This document shows, piece after piece, positions 1 to 54,833 of a stretch of 64,000 nucleotides of DNA (position 1 is the stretch's first letter; each line of letters opens with the position of its first letter). Under the pieces are notes generated by a model. It ran no database searches, had not been told where the DNA came from, and worked only from the letters and a program-made list of their open reading frames with translations. This DNA comes from a virus: IMG/VR virus record IMGVR_UViG_3300038379_000822, positions 1-64,000 of that record, one strand, 5' to 3'. The position numbers were made by a program, and so were the translations under genes.

Positions 1-132
1 AAATGCTGCAGAACCCCAAGGTTCCCAGCTTCGCGAGCGGTCCCGGAACTGTGACCGGAACCCTCGCGCTCGCGCCATGGAGCTGGCGCACCATCCCCTC
101 TCGGGCCCCGCCTCGGAGGCGTCATGGTTCAT
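1..132. repeat. Left copy of a 132-bp perfect direct repeat (partner 2604..2735) bracketing the Cas12-like/CRISPR cassette; may continue left of the window
   Basis: Base-by-base comparison shows 1..132 is identical to 2604..2735. Identity ends at 133/2736. In minus sense each copy begins at the last base of the final sense codon plus the TGA stop of the gene upstream (stops at 129..131 and 2732..2734). Confidence 0.95.
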
Positions 133-1565
133 TCGGCTGCTTGCTCCCGAAGAGCAGCAGCCAGGTCCTCCTCTTGCTTGAGACGTTTGTTCCAGGTGTC
201 TGGGTTGAAGCCGCTTCGGCGCAGCATGTGCAGTGCTGCGACAAAGTCGGCTTCTCGGTGAAACGAGCATGCGCGGCAATGGAAAATGCCGGTACGCGTG
301 TTGTGTGCGGCCGTGTCCGTAACGTTGCAACGTGGACACGTGCAGGAGATGTACTCCTGTTCGATCTCGACGAGAGCAAGCTCACTCTTCTTGCATGCCC
401 AGTCAATCGCCGCTTTGAGTTGGTAGTACGGGAAGCGCGGAAGAAACCGTCGCACGTTACGATCTTCGTCCGGACCGATGCCGCCATACTGCTCGATCAC
501 GATGGACCCGCATCCTTGCAGTTTGGCGAGCTCGACCACGGCAGACGCTGCCTGCTGGCAGGCCGTCTTCACGACGCGGGCCTCGAGATCTTCGATACGA
601 CTGACCGCATCGAAGCGACGATCACGCCCATGACCTTTCGCGCCATCGCCGCGCTCATACGGCGAAACCATCCCCATGTCACGCCGGCGAGCAGCAAGGG
701 ATTGCTTCTGCGCGCGCAACTTGTTGCCGCGGATGAGCTTCCGGAAGTGGCCTTCGGTCGACATGCAAGTGATGAAGTTGTGCATCCCGCGATGCACAAC
801 CAGGGCCTTCTGCTGGTCGACGTCCTTCGCTGGCGTCTTCGGCGCGAAGACACTGAGCAGCACCATCCACTTCTTGCCGTCCTTCGTCAAGATCTTGGCT
901 CCACCCATCTCGAGCTCGCCGGCAGCGACTTGGCGAAGCAGGCTCCAGTGCGGCCCCTTCGTCGTCATCAGCGCGACCTTGATCTTGCCTTGCTTGCGAC
1001 CAGGGTCCAGCGTCATGGAGAGCACTGGCCGGTTGTCCTCGAGCGTGATGTCGAGCTCCGCGCGTCGGAGCGCGACGGGTGCCCCCTTTCCCATGGAGGG
1101 CAGCCGAGTGCTGCGACGTTCCTTCAGCCAGCGCTGCACCGACTGCTTGGCGATCTGATCCCATGCACTGACGGTACCGCCCGGAACGCCGCCCTCGATG
1201 AGGGCCGCGAACCGCTCCTTCACCTTCGCATCCTTGTGCGTGGTCACCCACTCGAGGAAGCTGTCGACCTCCATCTTGCCGGCCTCGTAACCATTGGGCT
1301 TGCGCCCGGACTGGAGTGCGTGAGCGTACTCGAGCGTCGACGCCTGGATACAGCGATGTGCCACAGCGGCGAGTCCGCGCAGCGTCGACCCGAGCTCATC
1401 CCAGGTGCGGTTGAGAGGCTTCGCGATCTCGCACGTCAGCGTGCGAGCGAGCACCTCTTTGCGCCGCTGCTCTTTCGCTTGCTTGTTGGCGAGACGGCGC
1501 TCCTTACGGATACGTGCCGCCGCCTGGTCTTCGGTCTCTGGCTGTTCCTGGGGTGCGTCGCTCAT
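129..1565 (-). CDS. Compact TnpB/Cas12-like (type V-like) RNA-guided effector candidate, 478 aa, with His258 where the RuvC-I Asp is expected
   Basis: ORF 129..1874 trimmed to ATG 1565 (GAGGAA 5-6 nt upstream); codons upstream of it are translated CRISPR repeats. TnpB/Cas12 layout: WED-like KILTKDGKKWMVLLSVF, then ALVVHRGMHNF at the xxGxDxG position, IVIEQY (Glu358), zinc ribbon CTCPRC...CRAC, READFVAALHML (Asp440). It lies directly downstream of the array on the same strand. Confidence 0.8.
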   Translation of the reverse strand: MSDAPQEQPETEDQAAARIRKERRLANKQAKEQRRKEVLARTLTCEIAKPLNRTWDELGSTLRGLAAVAHRCIQASTLEYAHALQSGRKPNGYEAGKMEVDSFLEWVTTHKDAKVKERFAALIEGGVPGGTVSAWDQIAKQSVQRWLKERRSTRLPSMGKGAPVALRRAELDITLEDNRPVLSMTLDPGRKQGKIKVALMTTKGPHWSLLRQVAAGELEMGGAKILTKDGKKWMVLLSVFAPKTPAKDVDQQKALVVHRGMHNFITCMSTEGHFRKLIRGNKLRAQKQSLAARRRDMGMVSPYERGDGAKGHGRDRRFDAVSRIEDLEARVVKTACQQAASAVVELAKLQGCGSIVIEQYGGIGPDEDRNVRRFLPRFPYYQLKAAIDWACKKSELALVEIEQEYISCTCPRCNVTDTAAHNTRTGIFHCRACSFHREADFVAALHMLRRSGFNPDTWNKRLKQEEDLAAALREQAAE

Positions 1566-1645: not shown

Positions 1646-2487
1646 GCTCCATCGGCTCTCCGTTGGAGCAGGCGTTGCGACGCTTGCGACCAAGCACGGC
1701 ATCGACGTAGCGAGCATGCTCCACCGGCTCTCCGTTGGAGTAGTCGTTGCGACTCCCCCCCCCCACGTACACGAAGGAGGGGCGTGCCACGACGCTCCAC
1801 CGGCTCTCCGTTGGAGTAGTCGTTGCGACCAATGAGCGCCCGACCGGAGGCTGAAGTCCCTTGCATTGCTCCACCGGCTCTCCGTTGGAGTAGTCGTTGC
1901 GACGCGCACCCGAGACTCCCGAGTCGATGGAGATGCTCGCTCCACCGGCTCTCCGTTGGAGTAGTCGTTGCGACTGCCAGGCCGCCTAGTACAGGCAGCG
2001 CCCGTGCTGCAGCTCCACCGGCTCTCCGTTGGAGTAGTCGTTGCGACCTTCCAAGAGCTGTGCCGAGAGCACGCGCTGCAGGTTGCTCCACCGGCTCTCC
2101 GTTGGAGTAGTCGTTGCGACGGGCCTGTCGATGAAGGACATCGACGTGGTGGAGCTGCTCCACCGGCTCTCCGTTGGAGTAGTCGTTGCGACTGCGCCCG
2201 CTGCTCGAGCCGGAGGACCTGTACGCGACGGCGCTCCACCGGCTCTCCGTTGGAGTAGTCGTTGCGACCCAAGAAGGGCTGACCGTGGTGATCGACGAGG
2301 GGGTCGCTCCACCGGCTCTCCGTTGGAGTAGTCGTTGCGACGCCAGCGCTCTGCTTCCGTGGGGTCCTGCGCAAAGAGGCTCCACCGGCTCTCCGTTGGA
2401 GTAGTCGTTGCGACGGTGGTTCGGCTCGCCGGCGAGCAGCGTCCCGTAGACGCTCCACCGGCTCTCCGTTGGAGTAGTCGTTGCGAC
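1646..2487 (-). CRISPR. CRISPR array: 11 identical 36-bp repeats plus one degenerate terminal repeat, 11 spacers of 35-40 bp
   Basis: Plus-strand repeat GCTCCACCGGCTCTCCGTTGGAGTAGTCGTTGCGAC starts at 1718, 1794, 1868, 1939, 2012, 2085, 2157, 2233, 2306, 2379 and 2452. A 3-mismatch copy lies at 1646..1681. All spacers are unique. The degenerate repeat is at the cas-proximal end, so the leader is inferred at 2488+ and transcription on the minus strand (repeat reads GTCGCAACGACTACTCCAACGGAGAGCCGGTGGAGC). Confidence 0.95.
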
Positions 2488-2603
2488 GGTCCTGCGAAGA
2501 CCCGTGCGGTTGCGCACGCTTGCGGACCGCTTGGCGAGCGGTCCGTGAAAACCCCCGAGGCGAGGCGCGAAAGGGCGGAGAGACGGCTTCCTGCCGAAGC
2601 AGG
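2488..2603 (-). promoter_or_regulatory. Leader-like, highly structured region upstream (minus sense) of the CRISPR array; a possible promoter/leader or small-RNA (tracr-like) locus
   Basis: Three perfect hairpins are seen: 2503..2518 (6-bp stem), 2523..2545 (8-bp stem) and 2588..2605 (7-bp stem with a 4-nt loop, UUCG in minus sense). The position is opposite the degenerate repeat. Confidence 0.4.
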
Positions 2604-2735
2604 AAATGCTGCAGAACCCCAAGGTTCCCAGCTTCGCGAGCGGTCCCGGAACTGTGACCGGAACCCTCGCGCTCGCGCCATGGAGCTGGCGCACCATCCC
2701 CTCTCGGGCCCCGCCTCGGAGGCGTCATGGTTCAT
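2604..2735. repeat. Right copy of the 132-bp perfect direct repeat (partner 1..132)
   Basis: Identical to 1..132. It overlaps the stop codon of the DUF1643 gene (2732..2734). Confidence 0.95.
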
Positions 2736-3364
2736 GAAACGGTCACCTCACTTTCACTCAAGCCGCGTTGTTGCTCGGCCTTTCCAGAGGTCTTCTTGCT
2801 CCGGGAGCGCGTCTCACGCTGCTCGAGTACACACGGCACCACCAGGGAGTCCTTGGGAAGGTACAAAGGATGCGGCGCACCGTAGTTTCCTGGCTTCGTG
2901 GGATGGCGTAGCGCCATCGGCGGTTCCAGCCCCGCCTGCTCACGTAGCTCGCGCAGCCTACGCCAGACCTGCTGGTCACGGTTCATGAATGAGCCATGCG
3001 TGCCCCCCCATGCGCACACCACGCGGTCCGCGGTGACGGCGATCACGCGCAGCCACTCGTCGTTGTCCGGGCCGACGGGATCTACCGCTGCATTCATCGC
3101 CTTGGGGTCGGTAGCGCGGAATGCGAACAGGTTGCCGCCGAGGAAGATGTCGTAACACCAGTCCCGGCAGAACCCGATGCATCGGCGAATCGTGGGATCG
3201 TTCCTCAGCTCGTCGGCCACCGAAGGGTTCAGCATAATGAAGGCGCAGACCTTCGGTGGAGTGGTCCGGAACATCTTCTGCTGCTTGATGGCGTAGCGGG
3301 AGACGGTGTACCGGTAGATCCGGTCCTCGGAGAAGCGAGTGCCGATTTCGTTGTAGGCGTTCAT
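2732..3364 (-). CDS. DUF1643-family protein
   Basis: 210-aa ORF with motifs FIMLNPSVAD, DPTIRRCIGF, NLFAFRAT, GPDND and VCAWGG, typical of DUF1643. ATGA overlap with the upstream gene at 3361..3364. Confidence 0.75.
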   Translation of the reverse strand: MNAYNEIGTRFSEDRIYRYTVSRYAIKQQKMFRTTPPKVCAFIMLNPSVADELRNDPTIRRCIGFCRDWCYDIFLGGNLFAFRATDPKAMNAAVDPVGPDNDEWLRVIAVTADRVVCAWGGTHGSFMNRDQQVWRRLRELREQAGLEPPMALRHPTKPGNYGAPHPLYLPKDSLVVPCVLEQRETRSRSKKTSGKAEQQRGLSESEVTVS

Positions 3365-3798
3365 GGCACGAGCCTTTCGTCTGCCGAGCGCCAGAGGTCC
3401 GCCCAGGTCAAGCCGTGACCGATGCGGAACCGACGCGAGCTGAACGTGACGTACTGATCTTCGGGATAGAACTGCCGCGAAGCCTCACAGTCGCACGTCG
3501 GCAAGATGTAGAAGTCGCGATCATCGGGCTCCACGACCAGTCGGCCGCAGAGCGGCCGCGGTTCATCGTTCACTTGCGGATGCATGAGCACGAAGTACGA
3601 CGGACAGGTAGCGCGGCCACCAGCCGCGACGCAGGTGCGTGGATCGTTGTGTCGCGAGCAGTCGAGCTCGGGCGCCGTGTAGCCCATGAAGCACGCATAC
3701 GAGTAGCCGGTGGCCGGCGCGTAGCGCGAGGTGCCGTTGCTCGGAGGCGCGCAGCTCACGAGCAGGAGCACGGCAAAGAGGAGCGCCATGCTCTTCAT
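3361..3798 (-). CDS. Predicted lipoprotein (145 aa)
   Basis: Internal ATG 3798 of ORF 3361..4131 overlaps the methyltransferase stop (ATGA). N-terminus MKSMALLFAVLLLVSCA is a signal peptide with an LVSC lipobox. The mature part is Cys-rich. Confidence 0.7.
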   Translation of the reverse strand: MKSMALLFAVLLLVSCAPPSNGTSRYAPATGYSYACFMGYTAPELDCSRHNDPRTCVAAGGRATCPSYFVLMHPQVNDEPRPLCGRLVVEPDDRDFYILPTCDCEASRQFYPEDQYVTFSSRRFRIGHGLTWADLWRSADERLVP

Positions 3799-5156
3799 GC
3801 TGCCTGCTCCAGGAGGTTGGCTCGTACGATGGCCGCCGCCACTTGTGGGCAAACGCTGTTGCCAGCCAGGCGCGTCTGCGCCGTCTTCGTGAACCGTTCT
3901 CCGGCTGCGTCGACATTGATCTCGTAGACCGATGGGAAGCCTTGCGCCGCGAAGAGCTCGCTCGGTTGCAGCATCCGCATGCCGATGTCGACGACCGGCA
4001 TGCCACGCACGAGTACCATGCGGGCGGCTGCTCCGGCCTGCCACGGCGAGTCGTGGCTCGAATCGCCAGCGCTCGGCACATAGTGGCCGCGCATGAAGTC
4101 GTACACCCGCTGCGCCTCGATGTCGGACCACTGGTCACGAAGAGTGGCAAGAGCGAGAGCGTGATGGTCGGTGGCCGTGATCGTACCCAGCGGTTGCCGC
4201 ACGTCGTGACCGACGACCCCGCCGTAGTGCTTCAGCACCACGGGCACCACGAGATGCTTATCGTTGGTGGCGCACACGGTCGCCAGCGGCATGTCGAGCG
4301 ACTGGCCGCGGAAGGTCCCAGCTCCGCAGCCGTCGCGGAGCCCCGCGCCGGTGATCGTCGAGTAGTGGCCATGGCGCACCAGGAACGGAGTCGGCGCATC
4401 GACCACGAAGCGATGGATGCCACGTGCTACGCGAGCGAGCGTCGCCTTGGCCAGCGAACGACGACGCCCGAAGATCGAAGGACAGGGAATCGACCAGTCG
4501 ATGATCTCCGCTGCGGAACGCCAGGACTGAGGGCGCGAGCGACCATGCGTCGCCGTTGGCCATGCCGGTCGGCGCCCATCCGCTCGCGCGACCAGGAAGA
4601 GGCGCTTGCGCGTCGTCGGTGCGCCATAGTCGGCGGCGACCAGGCTCTTCCACTCGAGGCTGTAACCGAGGCCCACCAGCGTTTGGGCCCACGCTTTGAA
4701 GTCTTCGCCTTCGCGCGTCTTGTCCGGGTGGCCATCCGCATCGAGGGGCCCCCACGTCATGAACTCCTCGACGTTCTCCACGATGATGACCCGTGGGCGC
4801 ACGTCGCGCGCCCAGTCGATGACCACGTTCGCGAGGCAGCGGAGCCCCTGGCTGCGCGGAGCCTTGCCTTTCGCGCGACTGAAGTGCGTGCAGTCCGGTG
4901 AGGCCCAGAGCAGCGCCGGCCGTTGCCGGCCGCAGACGTCCTTGGGTTGCACCTGCCAGACATCCTCGAGGAAGTGCTTCGTCTCGGGATGATTGCTGCG
5001 GTGCATGCGAATCGCATCTCGGTCGTGATTGACGGCGATGTTGACCGGGCGCCCGAGAGCCATCGCAATCCCGGTCGAGGCGCCGCCGCCGCCGGCGAAC
5101 AGGTCGATGATGAGGTCGCCGGTGGTCACCGCGTCTCTCCCTTGAGCGGCTCCCAC
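3795..5156 (-). CDS. DNA (cytosine-5)-methyltransferase
   Basis: Motifs DLFAGGGG (I), SPDCTHFS (IV), ENVEEF (VI), QGFP and GNSVCP (X). An alternative GTG start at 5129 overlaps the upstream stop (GTGA). Confidence 0.9.
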   Translation of the reverse strand: MGAAQGRDAVTTGDLIIDLFAGGGGASTGIAMALGRPVNIAVNHDRDAIRMHRSNHPETKHFLEDVWQVQPKDVCGRQRPALLWASPDCTHFSRAKGKAPRSQGLRCLANVVIDWARDVRPRVIIVENVEEFMTWGPLDADGHPDKTREGEDFKAWAQTLVGLGYSLEWKSLVAADYGAPTTRKRLFLVARADGRRPAWPTATHGRSRPQSWRSAAEIIDWSIPCPSIFGRRRSLAKATLARVARGIHRFVVDAPTPFLVRHGHYSTITGAGLRDGCGAGTFRGQSLDMPLATVCATNDKHLVVPVVLKHYGGVVGHDVRQPLGTITATDHHALALATLRDQWSDIEAQRVYDFMRGHYVPSAGDSSHDSPWQAGAAARMVLVRGMPVVDIGMRMLQPSELFAAQGFPSVYEINVDAAGERFTKTAQTRLAGNSVCPQVAAAIVRANLLEQAA

Positions 5157-5720: not shown

Positions 5721-6425
5721 TCATGGCGCGTCCATGTCGCTCACAGGCGCTTCATGGCTCGACGGCGTTCTCCAGTCGATCCATCCATGGTGACGCTGCT
5801 GCGCGCTGTCGTGGCGCCAGACGAAGACGCCGTACTCCGCATTGTCGGTGCCGCCTTCGGTGAAGCTCGGTCGTGGCCGCACCACGTACAGCCGATCGTA
5901 CGGGTGTGCATACCACCATGCCCGCCGCTTCGCTCCGCCGAGCACCGACAGCCGAAGAAGCATCGCGGTCGTGGTGCCACACCCCAGCGCCCGCGCAACG
6001 TGCTCGTGCCAGATGGGCTCCCCGTACTTCCGGCCAGGTACAGTTACAGCGAACGGCGGATTGCCCACGACCAGATTGAACTTGTCCGCGATCCGTTCGC
6101 AAGAGTCACCAAGCAGCTGGGTAGGCTCCGTCGTCAAAAAGTCACCGACCACGGATCGGTCGCACAGGGTAAGACCTGGCACCTGCGGGTTGATGTCGAC
6201 ACCGACGATGAACGATTGTTGGAAGACAGTGCGCAGCGCCTGCACGAACGAGCCACTGCCCACGCTGGGTTCCAGTACCCGCGATGGCGGGTCTGACGCG
6301 AAGAGATCGTCCTTCAGTCGACGCACAATGGCCAGCGTGAGTTCCGGCTGCGTGGTGTAGGCGTCATTGGCACGGCGCTTGTGAGCCGGCTTCTTGCGGC
6401 GTGGGGGCGTGGCTTCGGTGGTCAT
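5721..6425 (-). CDS. N6-adenine DNA methyltransferase (NPPF type)
   Basis: Motif I LEPSVGSGSF and motif IV GNPPF, with a basic N-terminus; 234 aa. Confidence 0.85.
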   Translation of the reverse strand: MTTEATPPRRKKPAHKRRANDAYTTQPELTLAIVRRLKDDLFASDPPSRVLEPSVGSGSFVQALRTVFQQSFIVGVDINPQVPGLTLCDRSVVGDFLTTEPTQLLGDSCERIADKFNLVVGNPPFAVTVPGRKYGEPIWHEHVARALGCGTTTAMLLRLSVLGGAKRRAWWYAHPYDRLYVVRPRPSFTEGGTDNAEYGVFVWRHDSAQQRHHGWIDWRTPSSHEAPVSDMDAP

Positions 6426-11286: not shown

Positions 11287-12044
11287 GCGTGCTGTTCCTT
11301 CTGCAACCTCGGTAGGAGGTCGACGTATGCCTCTGGCGCGTAGGCGAGTTGCTCGAAGCTCGTGCCGTGGGCGCTGGTCGCGTTGGTGTCGCGCGTCCTC
11401 CGGCAGCCGCACCGCATGCAGCACTCATCCACGACGATGCCGCCATACGTGGCCCGAACCCCCGGGTTCTCTGCGTTGCCACCGACGATCGCGAGCGGGC
11501 GCTGCCAGTCATGACCATCGTCCGCGGCGCAGGGTGGCTCGACCGGGTCGAGTACGACCGTGGTGCTCAGCTCCTCATCGGTCTCGCCGCAGTGGACGCT
11601 GACCTCGATTGCCCAAGACCGCAGCAGGTCGACCTCATCGTCTTCGGTCTCTGCCTCGTACTCGTAGTTGGCACGCGTGCCCCCCCGCGTCGCGAGCTCG
11701 AGCGCCTCTTCGGGCGAGCTGGCAGTGACGATCCAGCACCCGTCGGTATCGGTGGCGTCCCACGACCGCGGACAGTCGCTGCCGGCCAGGGCTCGCAGCG
11801 CGCGGTCCACTGCCGCATCGGCAACGTCCCATACGGCGAGGGCCGCATCTCTTCGGTTCAGGAACTCGACGTAGCGAGGGTGCTCCTCGGTGAGCTCGCC
11901 AGCTTCCTGCAGCATTTCCTCGACCGGATCCCACTCGTTCTCACAGCAGTCGATCGCATGTTGCGCCATCGCGCGCTCTGCTTCCGCCCGTACGACGGCG
12001 GCACGTAGCGGATGGATCACGGGCGTCGGGGTCTCTTCAGTCAT
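11283..12044 (-). CDS. Hypothetical protein, paralog of 22291..22986 (acidic, C-terminal Cys cluster)
   Basis: Shares SSxEEALExA...ANYE, LDPxxPPC, GHxW, GGxxxNPGV and CxxCGC with the plus-strand ORF 22291..22986. Confidence 0.7.
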   Translation of the reverse strand: MTEETPTPVIHPLRAAVVRAEAERAMAQHAIDCCENEWDPVEEMLQEAGELTEEHPRYVEFLNRRDAALAVWDVADAAVDRALRALAGSDCPRSWDATDTDGCWIVTASSPEEALELATRGGTRANYEYEAETEDDEVDLLRSWAIEVSVHCGETDEELSTTVVLDPVEPPCAADDGHDWQRPLAIVGGNAENPGVRATYGGIVVDECCMRCGCRRTRDTNATSAHGTSFEQLAYAPEAYVDLLPRLQKEQHA

Positions 12045-45126: not shown

Positions 45127-45572
45127 GCAGCACGTCGTGGTCATCGCTAGTGAAGCAGGTGAGTCAGCCAGATGACGCATTGCGCGTGAGCGTCTCGGGC
45201 GAGTTCCGGTTCCACGTCTTTCGCGAAGGTCTGATCGTTGAGGATCAGCACTTCGCCTGCGAAGTGCACTTCTACACGAGCTGCTTCGCGGGGCACAGCT
45301 GCTCCCAGCAGACTAGCATCAGCGAGTGGTTCTACTGTTCGCTCTGGCGCGAACTCTACCCGGAGCCGCTTGCTGTGGGGCGTCAGACGCTGCCTGGGTA
45401 CCGGCTTCGCGACAGCGACATGCTGTTGCAGCTTGCGCAAGGCATTGCCGCACGGCCGGAGGATGTGACGTTCCTGAACGTATGCCTCATCGGGGATCCG
45501 AGTTTCACGCGTGCATTCAAAGAACTCGTTTATGACTGCAGGCGCGAGAACCGGCACGCTCAGCGCACCTGA
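45123..45572 (+). CDS. Hypothetical protein (149 aa), last gene of the rightward block
   Basis: ATGA overlap. Its 3' end overlaps the convergent giant ORF by 13 nt. Confidence 0.6.
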   Translation: MSSTSWSSLVKQVSQPDDALRVSVSGEFRFHVFREGLIVEDQHFACEVHFYTSCFAGHSCSQQTSISEWFYCSLWRELYPEPLAVGRQTLPGYRLRDSDMLLQLAQGIAARPEDVTFLNVCLIGDPSFTRAFKELVYDCRRENRHAQRT

Positions 45573-48500
45573 AGCGCGGCCATCACACGGAACGGCGACG
45601 GCAGCGCGCTCGTCATCTTGACCGCTGCATCCTGCATCGCCGTGAGCGCCGACTCCGTGACGTAGACGTGCGTGTCGGACGGGTTCTTGGTGATGCGCCC
45701 ATCGAAGCCAATCCGGAACAGCTTCGTGCGCGCAGCGCTATCCGCACGATGCTTCAGGAGCACGCGGCGTCCCGGGTTCTCAACCATCTTCTTGCGACGC
45801 GACGCGCGCTCACCCCCTGCGCTGGCGATGACGATGTCCGTCTCTGCGGACCGGCGACGCTCCGCCCGCACGGCTTCGGCTGCCGACCTGCTGATGCGTA
45901 GCGACATGTTCCCGGTCTCCGGGTCGAGCAGCTCCATCACCGACGCTTCTTCCGCGGAGACGCGCGAGATCTCGGCGGCGAAGCTCAGACTGACGGCCAT
46001 CTGCTGAGCGGCGGCCTCGAGCTGAGCCGGAGTAGCTTCCTCGGTCGTGACCTCCTCGCCAGTGAGCAGCTTGCGCACGATGGCTGCCTGCGACGTGAGC
46101 CATAACCGGCGAGCGTTGGCGCCAGCGACGATGGTTCCTCCGATCTCGCGAGCTTGGCGCTCCATCTGCTCGGGCGCAGGGACGACCGTGGCCAGGTACT
46201 GGAGCATCACGCCCCACACGAGCTTGGTGTTGTCGCCCTTGTCCGCGCGGATGCCCTTGCTCTCGCGTCCGGTGGCGACGACGTACTCCCACATCGCTCG
46301 GCATGCGCGCCGCAGGACGAGTTGCGGGAACGGAACATCAAACCGCGCACGAAATCGCTGCTGGGCGCTCTCATCGAGCGTAATCGTGTGCTTCTTCTGA
46401 TCGATCGCGAAGAACGCGGCGTCGAAGAGCGGGCTGTCCGCGAAGATGTTCACCGGACCGGGGTCGCCCTCTGCGAGAGGCACGTAACGATTCAGGTAGG
46501 CGATCACGAGCGGTCGGATATCGCGCCCGGTCTCGCGGCCGCCGAGGTCGGCGTCTTCCGGAAGCGGCAACGCCTTGGCCTCAAAGCCTGCGCGCAGGAG
46601 AGCCACGTTCTCCTTGGTCGCTGCAAGCTGCTCGCGGTACTCGCGCTTCCCCGTGATCCCGTAGCGGCTGACGATGCGCTCGGTGACCTCGGCATCGCCC
46701 GCGAAGAACTGCTTGCTCAGCGCGTTGAGCTCCGCGAGCTTTCGTTGCTCCTCGAGGTAGAAGGTCAGCTCCTTCTCGAGCAGCTCTCGCCGCTTCTCAA
46801 CGCTCTGCTCGGCGAAGGCGACGTTCTTGCGGCGGGTCTCCTTGCGTTCGGAGCTGAGACGCTGCCCCGTGACGCTGGCCAGCCAGCTCGTGAACCGCTT
46901 CCATTCGTCGGCGCTGCGCTTGTAGATGCTGTGCACCGGATCGTCTTCCGCGAACCATACCGGCAGCTCTTCCGCAAACCCCACGCCCGAGCTCGCCGCA
47001 CCGATGAATGCTTCCGCGAAGGCCTCATCGTCCTTGCGATCTTCGACCCCGCGCCCGCGCTTCATCTCCGTCATGTAGCGAGCCGTCACCAAGAAGGTGT
47101 GGGCGTTGAGCTCGAACCACTTGGCGAGCCAGTCGTCGCTGTGTGCCCGCAGTGCCGCGCCGCGCTCGATGGCGGCCTCGTAGGGCATCCACGTGGGCGT
47201 CGGCCGCTTCCGCTTGCGGAAGTACTCGAGCAGCGTCCCGGTGATGTGCGAGAAGGCCCCGAACCATCGCATGAGCCCATACGTGCGACTCGGTTGAGCG
47301 CTGCCTGCCCAGTCGGCGTAGAGCCGATCGAGCGCGTTCAGCAGCGGCGTGTCCTCGGTATCGGGCCAGATCTGCGCTGGGGCAAGCACGGGGAGCGCCG
47401 GGATCTTGATCTTCTTCTTCTCGGTCGAGAAGACCGGATCAGCGAGCACGATGCCGTCATCGGAGACGTGGCTCGCTCGCGCAAAGAAGGGGAGCAGCGT
47501 ATCGACCCCGATGCCGTAGTTCCGGGGCCATGGATCGTAGAACTCGGCCAAGAACGAGTGCTTGTTGTTGTTCAGCTGGTAGAGCTTCTCGCCGCGCGAC
47601 TCGTCGATGACTTCAGCACCAGGGCGCGCGGTCTTGCTCGTCTTGGTCCATTCGATGCGCTCCGCATCATCGGTTCCGAACATGTCGTAAGCCCAGTCCG
47701 GCGACCCGGCACTCACGTCATCGACCGGGCTATGCGGGACCTCGGCCTGCCGGTGCTCGCCGGCATCGAGATCGACAGCCACGATGCGGTCATCGCGATC
47801 GACGATGGCCACACCGCCGGGTCCGGGCTCGACATCGACGGCGCGGAGGGGAACGTCCTCGCCGATCGTGGGCACCACAGGGACCTCCCAGGGGGGAGGG
47901 GCCTCGGCCACGGGCGCGGGCGGAGCGACTGGAGGAGGAGGCTCTGGACGGCGCGGAGCGGCCGCAGCAGGCGACTGCTGCACTTCGACCGCGTAGGTGT
48001 CGATCACCTGCGGCGAAGGCTTTCTGGGAGCGCTTGGCGGCGGCGAAGCCGGTTGCGCTGGAGCAGTCGAGATGCCGGCCCGGGCCGCAATCTTCTCGAT
48101 GTAGGACAGGATCTCGGTCTGACCGGTGAGGCGTTCGGCCGCGCCAATCTCCTCGAGGTAGCCCTCGGTGGTGGTCACCGACTCATGCCCCAAGATCGCC
48201 TGCACCTCCCGCAAGGGCTTGCCGGCCTCGATCATGGCCGTCGCGGCAAAGTGCCGAAGGGCGTGCGGATGCAGTAGCTTCAGCTCATCGTCCGTGAGCC
48301 CAGCATGCAGTCCGAGCCGTCGAAGCCACGCGCGACTCGCGGGGCGCGTCATGCTTCGCCGGTAGTTGAGCTCGGCGTTCGGCTTGAACTCCTGGTACTT
48401 GCCAGCAGCATTCGCTCCCCAGAGCCGCAGCGGAGGGAAGAGTGGAGCATCGGCGTTCACGACGAGTTCGCGTAGGCGTTCGTCCGCGCGAGGGCGGCGC

Positions 48501-49669
48501 GAATCCACTTCCAATGCCGCCTGAAACTGCAGGAGCGCTTGGTAGGCGACCGAGGGATACGGCAGGATCATGCGCTTCCCGCCCTTGCGCAGCAGCAGCA
48601 CACGCGGCTCCGTGCCCGTCGCATCGAGCCAACCAGGCCACTGAACCCCTTGCCGAGGCGGTGGCTCCGCTCGGCGCAGATTCAGCGTCTCGCTGATGCG
48701 CGAGCCGAGCAGGATCAGGAAGAGGAACATCGCCCGATCACGCAGGCCTTCGGTCGACTTCACGGTATCGAGGTAGGCCAAGATCTTCGGCACGATCTCG
48801 GGTGGCATGCGCTTCATGGCGCGTCGCGACTTCCGTTCACTGGAGAAGCCGCTCGAGAGCCGGCTCTTCAGTCCATCGAAGATGTCGTACTTCACGAGCG
48901 GCGTATCGGGTCCGGTGTTCTCTCCGCGCCCGAGCACCTTCCAGAAACTGGAGAGCGCCGACACCCGCTGCAGGATGGATGCGCGACTCAGGCCGCGCGG
49001 CTGCGGGATCATGTACGTGTAGATGTCGCGGATGGGCTTCCCATCGATGACCGAGGTGGAGAAGATCGCCATGCCGCGATGCTGAGCACGCAACTGCGCG
49101 ATGGTCGGAGTGCGGATGAGCAGACGATGCAGCACCATGCGCCCGAGTCGTGCGGCGAGCTGCTCACCGTTCAGCGCATCGTCGGCTTTGCGCTCCGCGT
49201 CCGTGAACATCCCCTCGATGTCCCGTTGCGTGGCGCGCCCTCCCAGCTTGGTAACGATCTCGAAGACGCGTCGGCGGATGGGATCGTCGCTGTCTTTCGC
49301 GCGCTCGGCGACCAGAGAGAAGGGTCGGTTCGCGAGCCAGTTGACGTACTCCTCGGCATCGGAGCGAAGCACCTGGTGTGGCGCCACCGGGCGTCCATAC
49401 TTGACCGCCAGCCACTCGAAGAACTCCGACAGCGCGCGCGAGTAGGCGATCTTGGTGTGGGGCGAGCGCTGACCGATGTAGCTCTGCCAGGTGTCGCCGC
49501 TGCTGCTCGAGGGCTGCCCGAAGAACGCGTCGAGAGCGGCAAGGCACCGCCGGGCTTCGTCCCGGTTGCCGAAGGCGTCGACCCAGGCCTTCACCGATGC
49601 CTCGTCGCGTTTCCCGCGGAAGATGGCGAGCTCGGGGCGGTTCTTGGTCAGCGCGGTCGATCGGGGCAT
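45560..49669 (-). CDS. Giant tyrosine recombinase/integrase fusion (1369 aa): N-terminal ~520-aa integrase, Pro/Ala linker, ~800-aa C-terminal region of unknown function
   Basis: Integrase signatures: SAM-like AYSRALSEFFEWL...AEEYVNWL, LLGSRISETLNLR, HPHALRHFAATAMIEAG and ILGHESVTTTEGYL. The single uninterrupted ORF has balanced composition throughout. Confidence 0.85.
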   Translation of the reverse strand: MPRSTALTKNRPELAIFRGKRDEASVKAWVDAFGNRDEARRCLAALDAFFGQPSSSSGDTWQSYIGQRSPHTKIAYSRALSEFFEWLAVKYGRPVAPHQVLRSDAEEYVNWLANRPFSLVAERAKDSDDPIRRRVFEIVTKLGGRATQRDIEGMFTDAERKADDALNGEQLAARLGRMVLHRLLIRTPTIAQLRAQHRGMAIFSTSVIDGKPIRDIYTYMIPQPRGLSRASILQRVSALSSFWKVLGRGENTGPDTPLVKYDIFDGLKSRLSSGFSSERKSRRAMKRMPPEIVPKILAYLDTVKSTEGLRDRAMFLFLILLGSRISETLNLRRAEPPPRQGVQWPGWLDATGTEPRVLLLRKGGKRMILPYPSVAYQALLQFQAALEVDSRRPRADERLRELVVNADAPLFPPLRLWGANAAGKYQEFKPNAELNYRRSMTRPASRAWLRRLGLHAGLTDDELKLLHPHALRHFAATAMIEAGKPLREVQAILGHESVTTTEGYLEEIGAAERLTGQTEILSYIEKIAARAGISTAPAQPASPPPSAPRKPSPQVIDTYAVEVQQSPAAAAPRRPEPPPPVAPPAPVAEAPPPWEVPVVPTIGEDVPLRAVDVEPGPGGVAIVDRDDRIVAVDLDAGEHRQAEVPHSPVDDVSAGSPDWAYDMFGTDDAERIEWTKTSKTARPGAEVIDESRGEKLYQLNNNKHSFLAEFYDPWPRNYGIGVDTLLPFFARASHVSDDGIVLADPVFSTEKKKIKIPALPVLAPAQIWPDTEDTPLLNALDRLYADWAGSAQPSRTYGLMRWFGAFSHITGTLLEYFRKRKRPTPTWMPYEAAIERGAALRAHSDDWLAKWFELNAHTFLVTARYMTEMKRGRGVEDRKDDEAFAEAFIGAASSGVGFAEELPVWFAEDDPVHSIYKRSADEWKRFTSWLASVTGQRLSSERKETRRKNVAFAEQSVEKRRELLEKELTFYLEEQRKLAELNALSKQFFAGDAEVTERIVSRYGITGKREYREQLAATKENVALLRAGFEAKALPLPEDADLGGRETGRDIRPLVIAYLNRYVPLAEGDPGPVNIFADSPLFDAAFFAIDQKKHTITLDESAQQRFRARFDVPFPQLVLRRACRAMWEYVVATGRESKGIRADKGDNTKLVWGVMLQYLATVVPAPEQMERQAREIGGTIVAGANARRLWLTSQAAIVRKLLTGEEVTTEEATPAQLEAAAQQMAVSLSFAAEISRVSAEEASVMELLDPETGNMSLRISRSAAEAVRAERRRSAETDIVIASAGGERASRRKKMVENPGRRVLLKHRADSAARTKLFRIGFDGRITKNPSDTHVYVTESALTAMQDAAVKMTSALPSPFRVMAALQVR

Positions 49670-51794: not shown

Positions 51795-52909
51795 CCTCCG
51801 TCGGTTGCTGCCAGGTGTTCGAGTGCATGCCGATCACGATCGGCAATGGCTCCCCATGACCAATGACTCCAGAGATCGCACGCGAACACGTGTTGCGCGT
51901 TCAGCGTCGCCGGATCCTCTGCCTCACGGAGCAGTCGCGGCAACGTCTCGGTGAGCGCGCTGTGGACGGCATCGACGCGGAGCATCGGTGCCTCGGCCCC
52001 CGGGAAGTCATCGATCGGCCCCGTCGCCTCGAGCGCGATGTTCGTGCACATCGACTCCATGGCACTGCCGAACGCGTACTCCCTATGCCCGGTCCGTCGC
52101 GTCAGAATGGCCGGCACGCCCATGCAGAGCCCCTGCAGCGGCACAAGCCCGAATCCCTCCGACCTCGAGGGCTGCACCACGACCAGGGCGCGTCGAATCC
52201 GACGTGCCATCTGACTCGTTGGACATCCATCGTGCAGCACCACCTCGATCGATGGCTCATCTTCGGCTTGGTACAGGTACTCGAGCTGGGCTTCCGGGTT
52301 GCAGATGATGCGCAAGCGTACCTGCCGGCGCAGTCTCGGCTCGAGACGTTTCCATGCGAGGATGAGCTCACGCGTACCCTTGCGTTGATGCGTCGAGCTC
52401 GTCACGTGCAGCGCGATGCGCTCAATCTCGCCGCTCTGGCGCGGTCCCCAGGCATACGGCGAGTACGCACGCGAGACACCATGCCGCACCTTGCGAATGT
52501 CGATATCGCGTCCCTGAGGCATCGCGTTCCAGAGCCCGTTGGCCACGACGTACAATGACGTATGGCTCGGCACGACGATGCCGTGCAGTTTCTCGTTCCG
52601 CAGCAGTCGCTCGAGGTACTCCCGAAGCCGCGGCGCCATCGTCAGCGAGTTCATTGCCAGCAGCAGCCAGATCTTCGTCGGCTGATCGAGCATGTGCACG
52701 ACCTCGACGGTCGCTGGATCGCCGACGACCAACGCGGTCGCGACTGGATCCTCGGACGGTCGCAGCTCTTCCAGGTTCAGCGTATCGACGGCCGTGAACC
52801 CACTGAGGAGGCTCGCCGCATGCAGCGCTTCGCACATGCCGAGCGCCACCTGCCGAAAGGACCCCTGCCCCGCACGCGGTCCATACACCCGCACGCCCGG
52901 TCGCGTCAT
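51791..52909 (-). CDS. Glycosyltransferase (GT-B, GT1/GT4-like)
   Basis: VVQPSRSEGFGLVPLQGLCMGVPAILTRRTGHREY matches the GT1 E..G...E...G.P signature. Confidence 0.8.
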   Translation of the reverse strand: MTRPGVRVYGPRAGQGSFRQVALGMCEALHAASLLSGFTAVDTLNLEELRPSEDPVATALVVGDPATVEVVHMLDQPTKIWLLLAMNSLTMAPRLREYLERLLRNEKLHGIVVPSHTSLYVVANGLWNAMPQGRDIDIRKVRHGVSRAYSPYAWGPRQSGEIERIALHVTSSTHQRKGTRELILAWKRLEPRLRRQVRLRIICNPEAQLEYLYQAEDEPSIEVVLHDGCPTSQMARRIRRALVVVQPSRSEGFGLVPLQGLCMGVPAILTRRTGHREYAFGSAMESMCTNIALEATGPIDDFPGAEAPMLRVDAVHSALTETLPRLLREAEDPATLNAQHVFACDLWSHWSWGAIADRDRHALEHLAATDGG

Positions 52910-54258
52910 GGGCCAAATCCCACGAGTTCATCGGGGATGCACCCGATCTGCTTCAGGCAAGCCAGCGCCGTCGCGCCCACCGTCGGCATGCCGAAGCGCT
53001 GGTAGAGCCCCATCGGGTGGATGCGCTCGACCGGTGGCTCCACACGCCGCATGGCGGCTTGAAGCATCTGCACATCGCCATCTTCCTGGCCGCCGGCGCA
53101 GTCCATCCAGGTCGCTTCGCCCCAGCCGTATCCAGGATGCACGGGCTCCGGCGTCGCCATGTCGATGTCGTAGGTACCGCTCCGCAGTCGTCCATGCCGC
53201 AGCGCCTCGGGCACGTAATCATCGTACGCCTGATCGGGAGGGTAGATGAGCATGTTGCCCGCGCAGACCGCGTCGAACGCCGGGACATCCCACGCCTCAC
53301 CATGCGAAGCGCTGACGTAGATGTTGTTTTGTTCGTGCAGCTGCACGATCTCGTCCGCCGTCATCACACCGACGATGAGCCGCACTCGCGCATCGAAGTT
53401 CTTCGGCGTCCATCCATTCGCCTTGATCGCAGCATCGTGCTCGAGCATGGTCGGGATCGCCGTCTGGAACTTGTAGCCATCCCACTCGCCCCACTCGTGA
53501 GTCTTCACGATGAGCGATGCCCGCTCGGACGGCCTGAACGCGCGCAAGAACCCCCTGATGATGGCCAGTTGGTTCTTGCGCGGCTCCCACTTGCCGATGT
53601 GGTAGAAGCGCTTGCCGTCGGGCACCGGCTTGAAGCCTCGCGGTTGCGCTACCGCACTCGCCCCGCGCGATGGCGAGTACGGCATCGGCACGATGTGCAC
53701 GCGCTGCACGCCAGCGCGGCGAAACACGTCCGCGTTGAAGCGACATGGCACCCAGGTCTGACCGAGACGATTCAAGGTCTCGACCATCTCGTCGGGCATG
53801 TCCAGCCGCTCCCACGAGGTATACACGATGGTGTGCGCCAGCACATGCTTGACCGCTTGCAGCGGCATCTGGCGTAGGTTCGGGTGCATCACCGCTTGCC
53901 GCAGCGATTCGGCGCTATGCAACACCACGTGGTGAATGGCGCAGAGCGTCTTGGCCGCCGACACGCGGGCCAGATGCAGCATGTCGTGCGCCACCTGTGG
54001 GTCCAAGTCATCATCGAGCACGAGATGCCCGGCCGTGCTCGACTTGAGGCGAACCGGCATCCCAACCGTCGCCAGAGCCTGGGCGATCGCACGCGAGTGC
54101 GCTGCCATGCCGTCGTTCGAAGGTCGCCAGTGTGCCGAGAGCTCGATGCACCACGGCAAGTGCGCCTCCGCCCCCACCGCAGCCTTCTCGGTGGAGAAGT
54201 CCGTGCGATCGGCTTCTGCGTTACCCTGAAACTGCGCCAGCTGGTCGGCCAGCGTCAT
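52906..54258 (-). CDS. Glycosyltransferase-like protein (GT-B-like, 450 aa)
   Basis: YHIGKWEPRKNQ and YVSASHGEAWDVPAFDAVCAGNMLIY. ATG 54258 overlaps the upstream stop (ATGA); the track start at 54291 is also possible. Confidence 0.7.
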   Translation of the reverse strand: MTLADQLAQFQGNAEADRTDFSTEKAAVGAEAHLPWCIELSAHWRPSNDGMAAHSRAIAQALATVGMPVRLKSSTAGHLVLDDDLDPQVAHDMLHLARVSAAKTLCAIHHVVLHSAESLRQAVMHPNLRQMPLQAVKHVLAHTIVYTSWERLDMPDEMVETLNRLGQTWVPCRFNADVFRRAGVQRVHIVPMPYSPSRGASAVAQPRGFKPVPDGKRFYHIGKWEPRKNQLAIIRGFLRAFRPSERASLIVKTHEWGEWDGYKFQTAIPTMLEHDAAIKANGWTPKNFDARVRLIVGVMTADEIVQLHEQNNIYVSASHGEAWDVPAFDAVCAGNMLIYPPDQAYDDYVPEALRHGRLRSGTYDIDMATPEPVHPGYGWGEATWMDCAGGQEDGDVQMLQAAMRRVEPPVERIHPMGLYQRFGMPTVGATALACLKQIGCIPDELVGFGP

Positions 54259-54833
54259 CGCTCCATCACCCGGCTCTCGGCGATCTGGCACGCCCAGCCG
54301 CAGCCCTCGGCATCGCAGCGCAGGATGGAGTCGACGGTCACCTCGCCCGCGACGAGCACCACCGTGCTCACGCCCATCGCGGTGACTCGCTTCGGGCCAG
54401 CTTTGCGCTGATCGATGTGGAACTTCCGATGCGACTCGCGCACCAAGATCTGCGAGCTATCCTGCGGGCGCCCCATCGCGATGCATCGCGGGCATACGAA
54501 GACGAAGAACATGTCGAGCTTCGTTGGATCGCTCGGATGCGGTAGATGCGAGATCTCGCAGATGCAGTCCTGATCCGTCTTGACGTAGTAGAGAACCAAC
54601 TTCGGCGACATCGGCGACAGCTGGCGCGTCTGCATGCCGTTGACCTCGACGCCCTTCGGTCCGGCCGTGAGCCCTGCCTTCGCCTTCGCCGCTGCGATCA
54701 TCTGGTCGTCGTACGCTCGACGCGCTTCGGCATCCGCGCGACTCTTCGCCCAGTTACGGTCCTGCGACGACGACGTCGTGCCTCCGCGCACGAGGATCGT
54801 AGGCAGGGGAGCACGCTTCGGTTGTTCCGCCAT
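54255..54833 (-). CDS. Hypothetical Cys-containing protein (192 aa)
   Basis: First gene after the motif cluster at 54842..54881. FVCPRC and CDAEGCGWAC. Confidence 0.65.
   Translation of the reverse strand: MAEQPKRAPLPTILVRGGTTSSSQDRNWAKSRADAEARRAYDDQMIAAAKAKAGLTAGPKGVEVNGMQTRQLSPMSPKLVLYYVKTDQDCICEISHLPHPSDPTKLDMFFVFVCPRCIAMGRPQDSSQILVRESHRKFHIDQRKAGPKRVTAMGVSTVVLVAGEVTVDSILRCDAEGCGWACQIAESRVMER

Follow-up and report, generated by a model that had tools for sequence, protein, structure and literature searches.

Positions 1 to 64,000 of the IMG/VR virus record IMGVR_UViG_3300038379_000822 (the whole stretch of DNA that was analyzed, hereafter the window) contain a gene predicted to encode a 478-aa Cas12f-like effector (129..1565, minus strand, with the stop codon at 131..129) beside a CRISPR array. 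In this protein the first residue of the RuvC catalytic triad, an Asp in Cas12f nucleases, is a His (H258). Judged from the alignments described below, this change is the signature of a large clade and not a one-off mutation. The reading that we favor, and that is probably correct, is that the effector is an RNA-guided DNA binder or silencer that does not cleave its target. An initial annotation of this DNA, made from the letters alone, had also arrived at binding or silencing, which still appears to be the most likely consequence of a His in this site. However, it missed the clade-wide signature.

The substitution can be read directly in the window, where the minus-strand codon CAT lies at 794..792 (c794 a793 t792) within the stretch ...gttgtgCATcgcggg... 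and, with translation starting from the ATG at 1565..1563, encodes H258 in the protein context KALVVHRGMHNFITC. There is an alternative GTG start at 1601 that would lead to a 490-aa protein (P0001) in which the same residue is numbered H270, and the choice between the two starts does not affect the finding of a His. A contig from a second sample encodes an identical protein, which rules out a sequencing error as the source of the His. The presence of His at the RuvC-I position is far beyond what chance or sequencing error would produce.

To locate the catalytic residues we used a profile of 23 family members, in which the window residues V-V-H-R-G line up with G-I-D-L-G of AsCas12f. This pairs H258 with D225, which is an Ala in the dead AsCas12f variants deposited as 8dzj and 7wju. 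In the same profile E358 (codon GAG, 494..492, minus strand) pairs with the RuvC-II residue E324 and D440 (codon GAC, 248..246, minus strand) with the RuvC-III residue D401. An alignment made with phmmer from the single sequence had placed V256 on the catalytic Asp; this was two residues off and was corrected by the profile. The AlphaFold2 model of the protein has a mean predicted local distance difference test score of 88. In this model H258 closes a strand formed by residues 250-259, E358 closes a strand formed by residues 352-358, and D440 starts a helix at 439-450. The three residues are thereby predicted to occupy the canonical positions of the RNase-H fold: H258 closes beta-1, E358 closes beta-4, and D440 begins the helix that comes after beta-5. 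Thus, codon, profile, and model bear out the claim of the initial annotation that His stands in for the RuvC-I Asp in a protein that retains the RuvC-II Glu and the RuvC-III Asp, and neither the profile nor the model places a genuine Asp or Glu at position I. It had also noted two nearby Asp residues, D248 and D250, and had discounted them as replacements. Both are where it put them, at the start of beta-1 and away from its catalytic end, with D250 at the far end of the strand. Neither is conserved and neither could take the place of the RuvC-I Asp.

Several searches placed the protein in the Cas12f lineage. PADLOC matched it to Cas12u3 (expectation value, E, 1.6e-40) and to Cas12f (E 2.1e-38), both over residues 40-444, and a PADLOC match to Cas12u1 (E 7e-9) was confined to the C-terminal ~120 residues (331-451). 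The only domain found by Pfam was Cas12f1-like_TNB (PF07282, residues 380-445), which contains a zinc finger of four Cys (CCCC; C410, C413, C430, and C433; 267..338, minus strand), and NCBIfam gave matches to TnpB and Cas12f2 that were both below threshold. The closest solved structures by sequence were those of AsCas12f, which matched over the full length with E 1.6e-27 for the single sequence and 2e-56 with the family profile. When the model was compared with solved structures using Foldseek, the best match was again AsCas12f (8j12, E 7e-27), Cas12m2 matched at about 1e-11, and the top 20 matches were all Cas12f structures but for one dCas12f entry (9n9c). The model and these matches confirm a miniature WED-REC-RuvC fold with a TNB zinc finger. 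By contrast, the protein does not belong to Cas12m by sequence, as no Cas12m chain in the PDB was matched by the family profile at E<=1e-3. These results support the view of the initial annotation that this is a Cas12-like protein, here a Cas12f/TnpB-type effector beside a CRISPR array.

The closest solved relative by both sequence and fold is AsCas12f1 from Acidibacillus sulfuroxidans (type V-F, formerly V-U3; PDB 8j12, 8dzj, 7wju). It shares with the window protein a small size, the WED-REC-RuvC-TNB architecture, the CCCC zinc finger, a GxGAKGHG motif, a trans-encoded RNA (a putative one in the window), and an adjacent array without adaptation genes; we saw no cas1, cas2, or cas4 among the open reading frames (ORFs) neighboring the window array and cas12. 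However, AsCas12f1 has an Asp-Glu-Asp triad (D225, E324, D401) and cuts double-stranded DNA, whereas the window protein has His first. The window protein also differs in having extra N- and C-terminal helices in the AlphaFold2 model, and in that the complementarity between its trans-encoded RNA and the repeat is supported over 5 bp only. Because the Asp-Glu-Asp triad that defines Cas12f is replaced here by His-Glu-Asp, we classify the protein, from its sequence, as Cas12f-derived (V-U3 branch) yet not as a canonical Cas12f nuclease. We also considered two phage Cas12 families that have names of their own, Cas12p 'hacker' (D378/E478/D582) and Cas12r (D238), and rejected both: they are active nucleases that contain the Asp and lie outside the present family.

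We then asked how widespread the substitution is. A first set of 22 homologs with 35-42% identity was combined with the window protein in a 23-sequence alignment. H258, R259, and G260 are unchanged across this alignment, where the mean column identity is 32%, and D440 and the four zinc-finger Cys are also invariant. The column of E358 contains Glu in most relatives and Gly in a near-monophyletic subclade; the RuvC-II Glu is thus not strictly required in the clade. A profile search of 1.84 billion representatives gave 419 proteins at E<=1e-30. We tabulated the triads of 163 sequences, comprising the best 150 of the 419 (among which 10 of the 22 homologs were already included), the other 12 homologs, and the window protein. 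The most common triad was His-Glu-Asp (86/163), followed by Asn-Glu-Asp (14), Arg-Glu-Asp (9), His-Gly-Asp (8), and then His-Asp-Asp, Arg-Glu-Glu, and Asp-Glu-Asp with six each; the remaining 28 had rarer or incomplete triads. The six Asp-Glu-Asp sequences score lowest and contain the motif IMGIDLGIV, as in AsCas12f. Two members of the His-Gly-Asp subclade have no adjacent acidic residue.

A neighbor-joining tree of 132 full-length cluster representatives has the Asp-Glu-Asp sequences at its base, then the Asn and Arg forms, and then a His crown group that includes the window protein and in which Arg, Asn, and Lys forms are scattered. Position I is H, N, R, or K in 126 of the 132, Asp being found only in the six basal, AsCas12f-like sequences, and among the 126 derived sequences there was no reversion to Asp or Glu at this position. 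The same pattern recurs in the loci taken from IMG/VR and from metagenomes. Two distant relatives (L025, L026) read GVDRG, which makes HRG the DRG motif common in type V proteins, altered at the Asp alone. A fully decayed triad was seen in two more distant, phage-borne proteins on IMG/VR contigs (L013, L014), which have C-P-G at I, His or Asn at II, and Glu or Asp at III. Despite this decay, arrays of 13-15 repeats adjoin their genes.

The array in the window (1646..2487, minus strand, which is the gene strand) contains 12 repeats of 36 nt (GTCGCAACGACTACTCCAACGGAGAGCCGGTGGAGC) and 11 spacers of 35-40 nt. It ends 80 nt from the cas12 start codon with a degenerate terminal repeat (1646-1681) at its gene-proximal end. 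Counting duplicate fetches of one locus once, arrays adjoin cas12 in 17 of 21 distinct loci, window included, with similar repeats that end in (U)GGAG. An exact search for the window repeat in metagenome contigs gave no match. Among the loci with arrays, only the window has its array upstream of cas12. This placement can be traced to a perfect 132-nt direct repeat that flanks the array-cas12 module on both sides: positions 1-132, where the repeat is cut by the window edge, are identical to 2604-2735. The latter are the first 132 nt of a 248-nt region (region X; 2488..2735, minus strand) that runs from a stop codon to the first repeat. In a contig from another sample (L001, 1-2476), region X, with the same 248 nt, separates the cas12 stop from repeat 1, after which come spacer 1 and repeat 2; this indicates that the canonical order is cas12, then X, then the array. 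That contig closes on itself through a 94-nt overlap of its ends, and spacers 4-6 of the window array are missing from it. Two assemblies thus show the module of RNA, array, and cas12 as a path that is either tandemly duplicated or circular. Spacer content varies between loci, and also between the two samples of this same locus.

By aligning the regions upstream of arrays we found a conserved, structured, putative trans-encoded RNA (trans-RNA) with two hairpins, from which a covariance model (R1) was built using seven loci. The window contains two identical copies, both on the minus strand. Copy A (25..93; 83 bits, E 1e-15) lies 36 nt downstream of the cas12 stop and copy B (2628..2696; 83 bits) lies in region X upstream of the array. 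In eight loci outside the training set the model gave matches of 28-68 bits, all on the gene strand; seven of these lie just 3' of cas12 or over its annotated 3' end, and one (L003, 33 bits) lies within the cas12 ORF. Of 16 distinct loci, nearly all contain the two-hairpin RNA directly 3' of cas12 (for example, L009 5975-6043, L010 2582-2650, and L022 4379-4447). Both hairpins are supported by compensatory changes at eight pairs, with 98.8% of cells paired in an alignment that was itself fitted to the covariance model. None of 500 shuffles reached this value and slid controls gave 31-53%. Rfam contains no family that matches the RNA.

Hairpin 1 has an 8-nt loop, GACUCCAC (AGCUCCAU in the window), whose sequence complements the final 5 nt of the repeat; in the window the repeat has the 3' end GUGGAGC. 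Loop and repeat covary, with CUUC facing GAAG in L023 and L024, UUCC facing GGAA in L016, and CUCCG facing CGGAG in L003, in a register that was set by hand. In L011, which was read by eye and is outside the covariation count, CCCGA faces UCGGG with an offset of one position. We also looked for a longer anti-repeat. In region X the duplex energy was no better than that of shuffled controls (255 of 300 were as good), and a scan of whole loci was swamped by GC-rich noise. From these sequence features, the RNA looks like a candidate trans-activating CRISPR RNA (tracrRNA) or an RNA of the short-complementarity 'scout' type. In two relatives with proteins of about 558 aa (L003, P0004; L005, P0003), we observed a basic C-terminal tail of ~100 aa whose coding sequence runs into the first CRISPR repeat, and in L005 the tail region shares positions 11390-11443 with the conserved RNA. 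The sequence may truly serve both purposes, or the ORF may have been extended too far.

The loci of the relatives contain a further conserved component. In 12 of the 16 loci that were compared for neighbors there is a gene for a protein of ~190 aa, on the same strand, located either between cas12 and the array or just past the array (L010 1951-2532; L009 5358-5927; L008 5527-6153; L005 12188-12862; L002 12016-12642; L003 11829-12422; and six further loci). This partner gene is not encoded within the window and may lie beyond its left edge. The partner protein consists entirely of helices and has a long coiled coil at its C terminus. Neither Pfam nor PHROGs assigns it to a family, and Pfam gives no sigma-factor match; the only match is a weak one to HTH_Tnp_1 (E 0.005), and the model of the partner had no fold match in the PDB and no recognizable helix-turn-helix (HTH) fold. 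To our knowledge, neither the trans-RNA nor the partner gene has been described previously.

A linked HTH protein has been reported together with a non-canonical RuvC-I for V-U24, which is listed with V-U43, V-U44, and branches of Cas12f among the type V groups with altered sites (Altae-Tran 2023, PMC10691335). Compared with V-U24 by its published description only, the clade may be this uncharacterized group. It is likewise CRISPR-associated, it is changed at RuvC-I only, and it has a ~190-aa partner with a weak HTH_Tnp_1 match. Unlike the description, the partner gene is absent from the window and the partner model lacks a recognizable HTH fold. Our literature search found no functional work on V-U24 and no follow-up paper naming it.

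The protein whose RuvC site is most similar is Cas12m2, which we consider, by analogy, to be the best mechanistic model for the window protein. Cas12m (type V-M, formerly V-U1; PDB 8hhl, 8pm4) has the same Asp-to-His change at RuvC-I (His-Asp-Asp) as well as Asn variants. Position I is non-canonical in the same way here, being H258 in the window protein and also Asn, Arg, or Lys in the clade. In Cas12m2, His317 and Asp579 bind one Mg2+ and clamp the non-target strand; the second metal is lost and the protein silences without cutting (PMC10442227). Likewise, Cas12m proteins whose triad is His-Asp-Asp or Asn-Asp-Asp bind and silence but do not cleave (PMC11013384). The His and Asp that are fixed in our 23-sequence alignment are the same two residues that hold this single Mg2+. 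Cas12m otherwise differs from the window protein, being about 600 aa long with an HCCC finger, a REC2 coiled coil, and no trans-RNA, as compared with 478 aa, a CCCC finger, and a trans-RNA. Since Cas12m is not a relative by sequence, the His arose in parallel in the two lineages.

Based on this analogy, we propose the following mechanism for an RNA-guided binder. The array would be transcribed from the region X side toward cas12, and the CRISPR RNA (crRNA) would assemble with the protein and the trans-RNA, the loop of which, as the covariation supports, pairs with the final 5 nt of every repeat. The complex would then bind complementary DNA beside a protospacer-adjacent motif. Without the bridging Asp that two-metal catalysis uses, cutting of double-stranded DNA is most likely absent; instead, His258 and Asp440 may hold the displaced strand, either through one metal ion or by contacting the phosphate directly, much as His317 and Asp579 do in Cas12m2. 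Such a stable complex would block transcription or replication of the target and not destroy it. Because the system is carried by a mobile element, a phage in the relatives, competing elements or host genes are the likely targets. The pattern of substitutions in the clade fits this model: His and Asp are fixed in the first homolog set, Gly can take the place of Glu, and Arg, Lys, or Asn that of His, as would be expected of a pocket that holds a phosphate and not of two-metal catalysis. In particular, Arg and Lys are unable to bind Mg2+, which argues for phosphate contact over catalysis.

A number of observations weigh against binding without cleavage. Conservation extends to E358, D440, the zinc finger, and the RuvC fold as a whole, which leaves room for residual or altered catalysis, and the protein may have kept an activity such as nicking, cleavage of single-stranded DNA or RNA, or guide processing. 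In Cas12m, moreover, the triad is poorly predictive of activity: canonical Asp-Glu-Asp members also fail to cut, and reversion of His-Asp-Asp to Asp-Glu-Asp did not restore cutting. Our searches for spacer targets were also negative. We found no protospacers in the window itself with up to 8 mismatches allowed, no target of the window spacers in 50,697 phage records, and no target in IMG/VR with exact 26-mers of spacers S1 and S2. Two spacers of relatives matched only their own arrays, and a comparison of 121 spacers with all fetched loci turned up nothing better than weak matches, for example 21 of 24 nt.

The conservation of the site could instead mean that the protein is a re-tooled nuclease in which a His-Glu-Asp triad works with one metal or with chemistry of a Mn/Zn type, the His acting as a ligand or general base, so that interference would still be destructive. 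Variants of this idea could include nicking of the non-target strand, cutting of single-stranded DNA, or collateral activity. We consider this fairly unlikely. It would account for the invariance of D440, the retention of E358 in most relatives, the intact zinc finger and RuvC fold, and the strong conservation of His in the crown group, where there is no drift, and it has been argued that conserved rearrangements of catalytic sites often reflect retained activity (Altae-Tran 2023, PMC10691335). However, the interspersed lineages with Arg, Lys, or Asn at position I are incompatible with a fixed catalytic chemistry, and a re-tooled nuclease is also hard to reconcile with the subclade that has Gly for the RuvC-II Glu, including the two members lacking an acidic residue nearby. 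Furthermore, among RuvC sites with a position-I His only that of Cas12m2 has been solved, and it is inactive and contains one Mg2+ (PMC10442227).

A more elaborate possibility, which we regard as distinctly unlikely, is a phage-borne, multi-part gene-control system in which the bound effector recruits the partner or uses a re-tooled pocket and does more than block polymerase. It would consist of a Cas12f whose cutting pocket contains His, a trans-RNA of short complementarity, and the coiled-coil protein as a dedicated partner. Such a system could, for example, switch host or rival-phage genes or nick one strand. If true, this would add a new functional class to the type V systems, along with a new RuvC-site chemistry.

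The RuvC pocket might also have been kept only for processing the precursor of the crRNA (pre-crRNA) or the trans-RNA, with target binding as the sole output. This overlaps with the favored reading of an RNA-guided binder and differs from it in the reason for which His and Asp are conserved. An array of 12 repeats needs processing, and the trans-RNA pairs at the 3' end of the repeat, near the expected cut. On the other hand, trans-RNA systems often depend on host RNases, and the Arg and Lys variants speak against catalysis. Precedents for processing of pre-crRNA in the RuvC site exist in Cas12c and Cas12j (as cited in PMC10442227), but this activity is metal-dependent and uses the full Asp-Glu-Asp triad, and processing in Cas12m is independent of RuvC (PMC10442227, PMC11013384). 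We therefore think it very unlikely that guide processing explains the site. It is extremely improbable that the protein is a decaying one or a decoy with no RNA-guided function of its own, such as an anti-CRISPR-like sponge for guide RNA, as has been suggested for a phage-encoded Cas9 with an inactivated RuvC (PMC12669027): the lack of spacer targets in the searches made would fit, but effector, array, co-varying trans-RNA, and partner gene have been kept together at only about 35-40% protein identity, and spacers that differ between loci and between samples fit a working guide system.

The 2025 CRISPR classification describes repeated inactivation of RuvC along with silencing, which has been demonstrated for V-C and V-M. 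Like the window protein, dCas12f-sigmaE (PMC12259090; PDB 9n9c) is Cas12f-derived; it is a nuclease-dead, RNA-guided binder with a dedicated partner. However, dCas12f-sigmaE has a C-terminal truncation with loss of RuvC-III and the zinc finger, is encoded beside rpoE in Bacteroidetes, and mostly has no array (PMC12259090), whereas in the window RuvC-III and the zinc finger are intact, an array is present, and there is no sigma factor. The family profile matched 9n9c with an E of only 2.5e-4. Cas12c, Cas12k, and TldR also bind under RNA guidance without cleaving the target, leading to silencing, transposition targeting, and repression, respectively. They are of other lineages with other partners, and none is close in sequence to the window protein: Cas12c keeps an active Asp-Glu-Asp for RNA processing, Cas12k partners with Tn7 proteins, and TldR has no arrays.

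The concept of a natural Cas12 binder with His in the RuvC site is thus already known from another lineage. What is new is the scale and lineage of the clade, the frequent association of the relatives with phages, the co-varying trans-RNA, and the partner gene. The Asp-to-His conversion, understood so far only in Cas12m, arose independently in the Cas12f lineage, where the His form is fixed in a large, often phage-borne clade that retains CRISPR arrays. This strengthens the view that RNA-guided occupancy over cutting is a recurrent and selectable outcome for effectors on mobile elements, and it provides a concrete system for asking what phages silence. The proteins are putative natural DNA binders of about 440-480 aa, which is smaller than Cas12m, with a defined guide architecture, and they are possible compact scaffolds for CRISPR interference, base editing, and epigenome editing.

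The initial annotation had taken the window to be of phage origin. This is shown for the relatives, which are found on contigs that carry genes for a Mu-like portal, terminase, Mu F, DnaB, and integrase, and on eight IMG/VR contigs of 44-298 kb. In the 64-kb window no virion gene was recognized: a comparison of about 40 of its ORFs with PHROGs and Pfam revealed no capsid, portal, or terminase. A phage origin of the window is therefore no more than plausible. The window has 66% G+C and consists mostly of ORFans; the same scan identified a C5 methylase, an integrase-like protein, a transposase, a thymidylate synthase, an ATPase with a VWA protein, a DnaJ, and glycosyltransferases. Among 185,579 reference genomes the sole match was to a metagenome-assembled genome of Sandaracinaceae (Myxococcota). 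In one relative (L020, 1-4626) cas12 and the partner gene sit between homologs of two window genes (54255-54833 and 52906-54291) that are adjacent to one another in the window, 50 kb from the cas12 module. Because the pair splits two genes that are adjacent in the window, this arrangement suggests that the module moves as a mobile cassette. There is no array within 3 kb downstream in L020.

Further along the window, an unusually long ORF of 1369 aa (45560-49669, minus strand) contains a tyrosine-integrase catalytic domain only around residues 208-506 and no recognized domain in the rest. Adjoining the module is a gene of phrog_3230, a phage family of unknown function (2732-3364, minus strand). 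Also next to the module are a gene predicted to encode a C5 cytosine methylase (3795-5156, minus strand) and an ORF (5721-6425, minus strand) in which we read by eye an NPPF motif typical of N6-adenine methylases.

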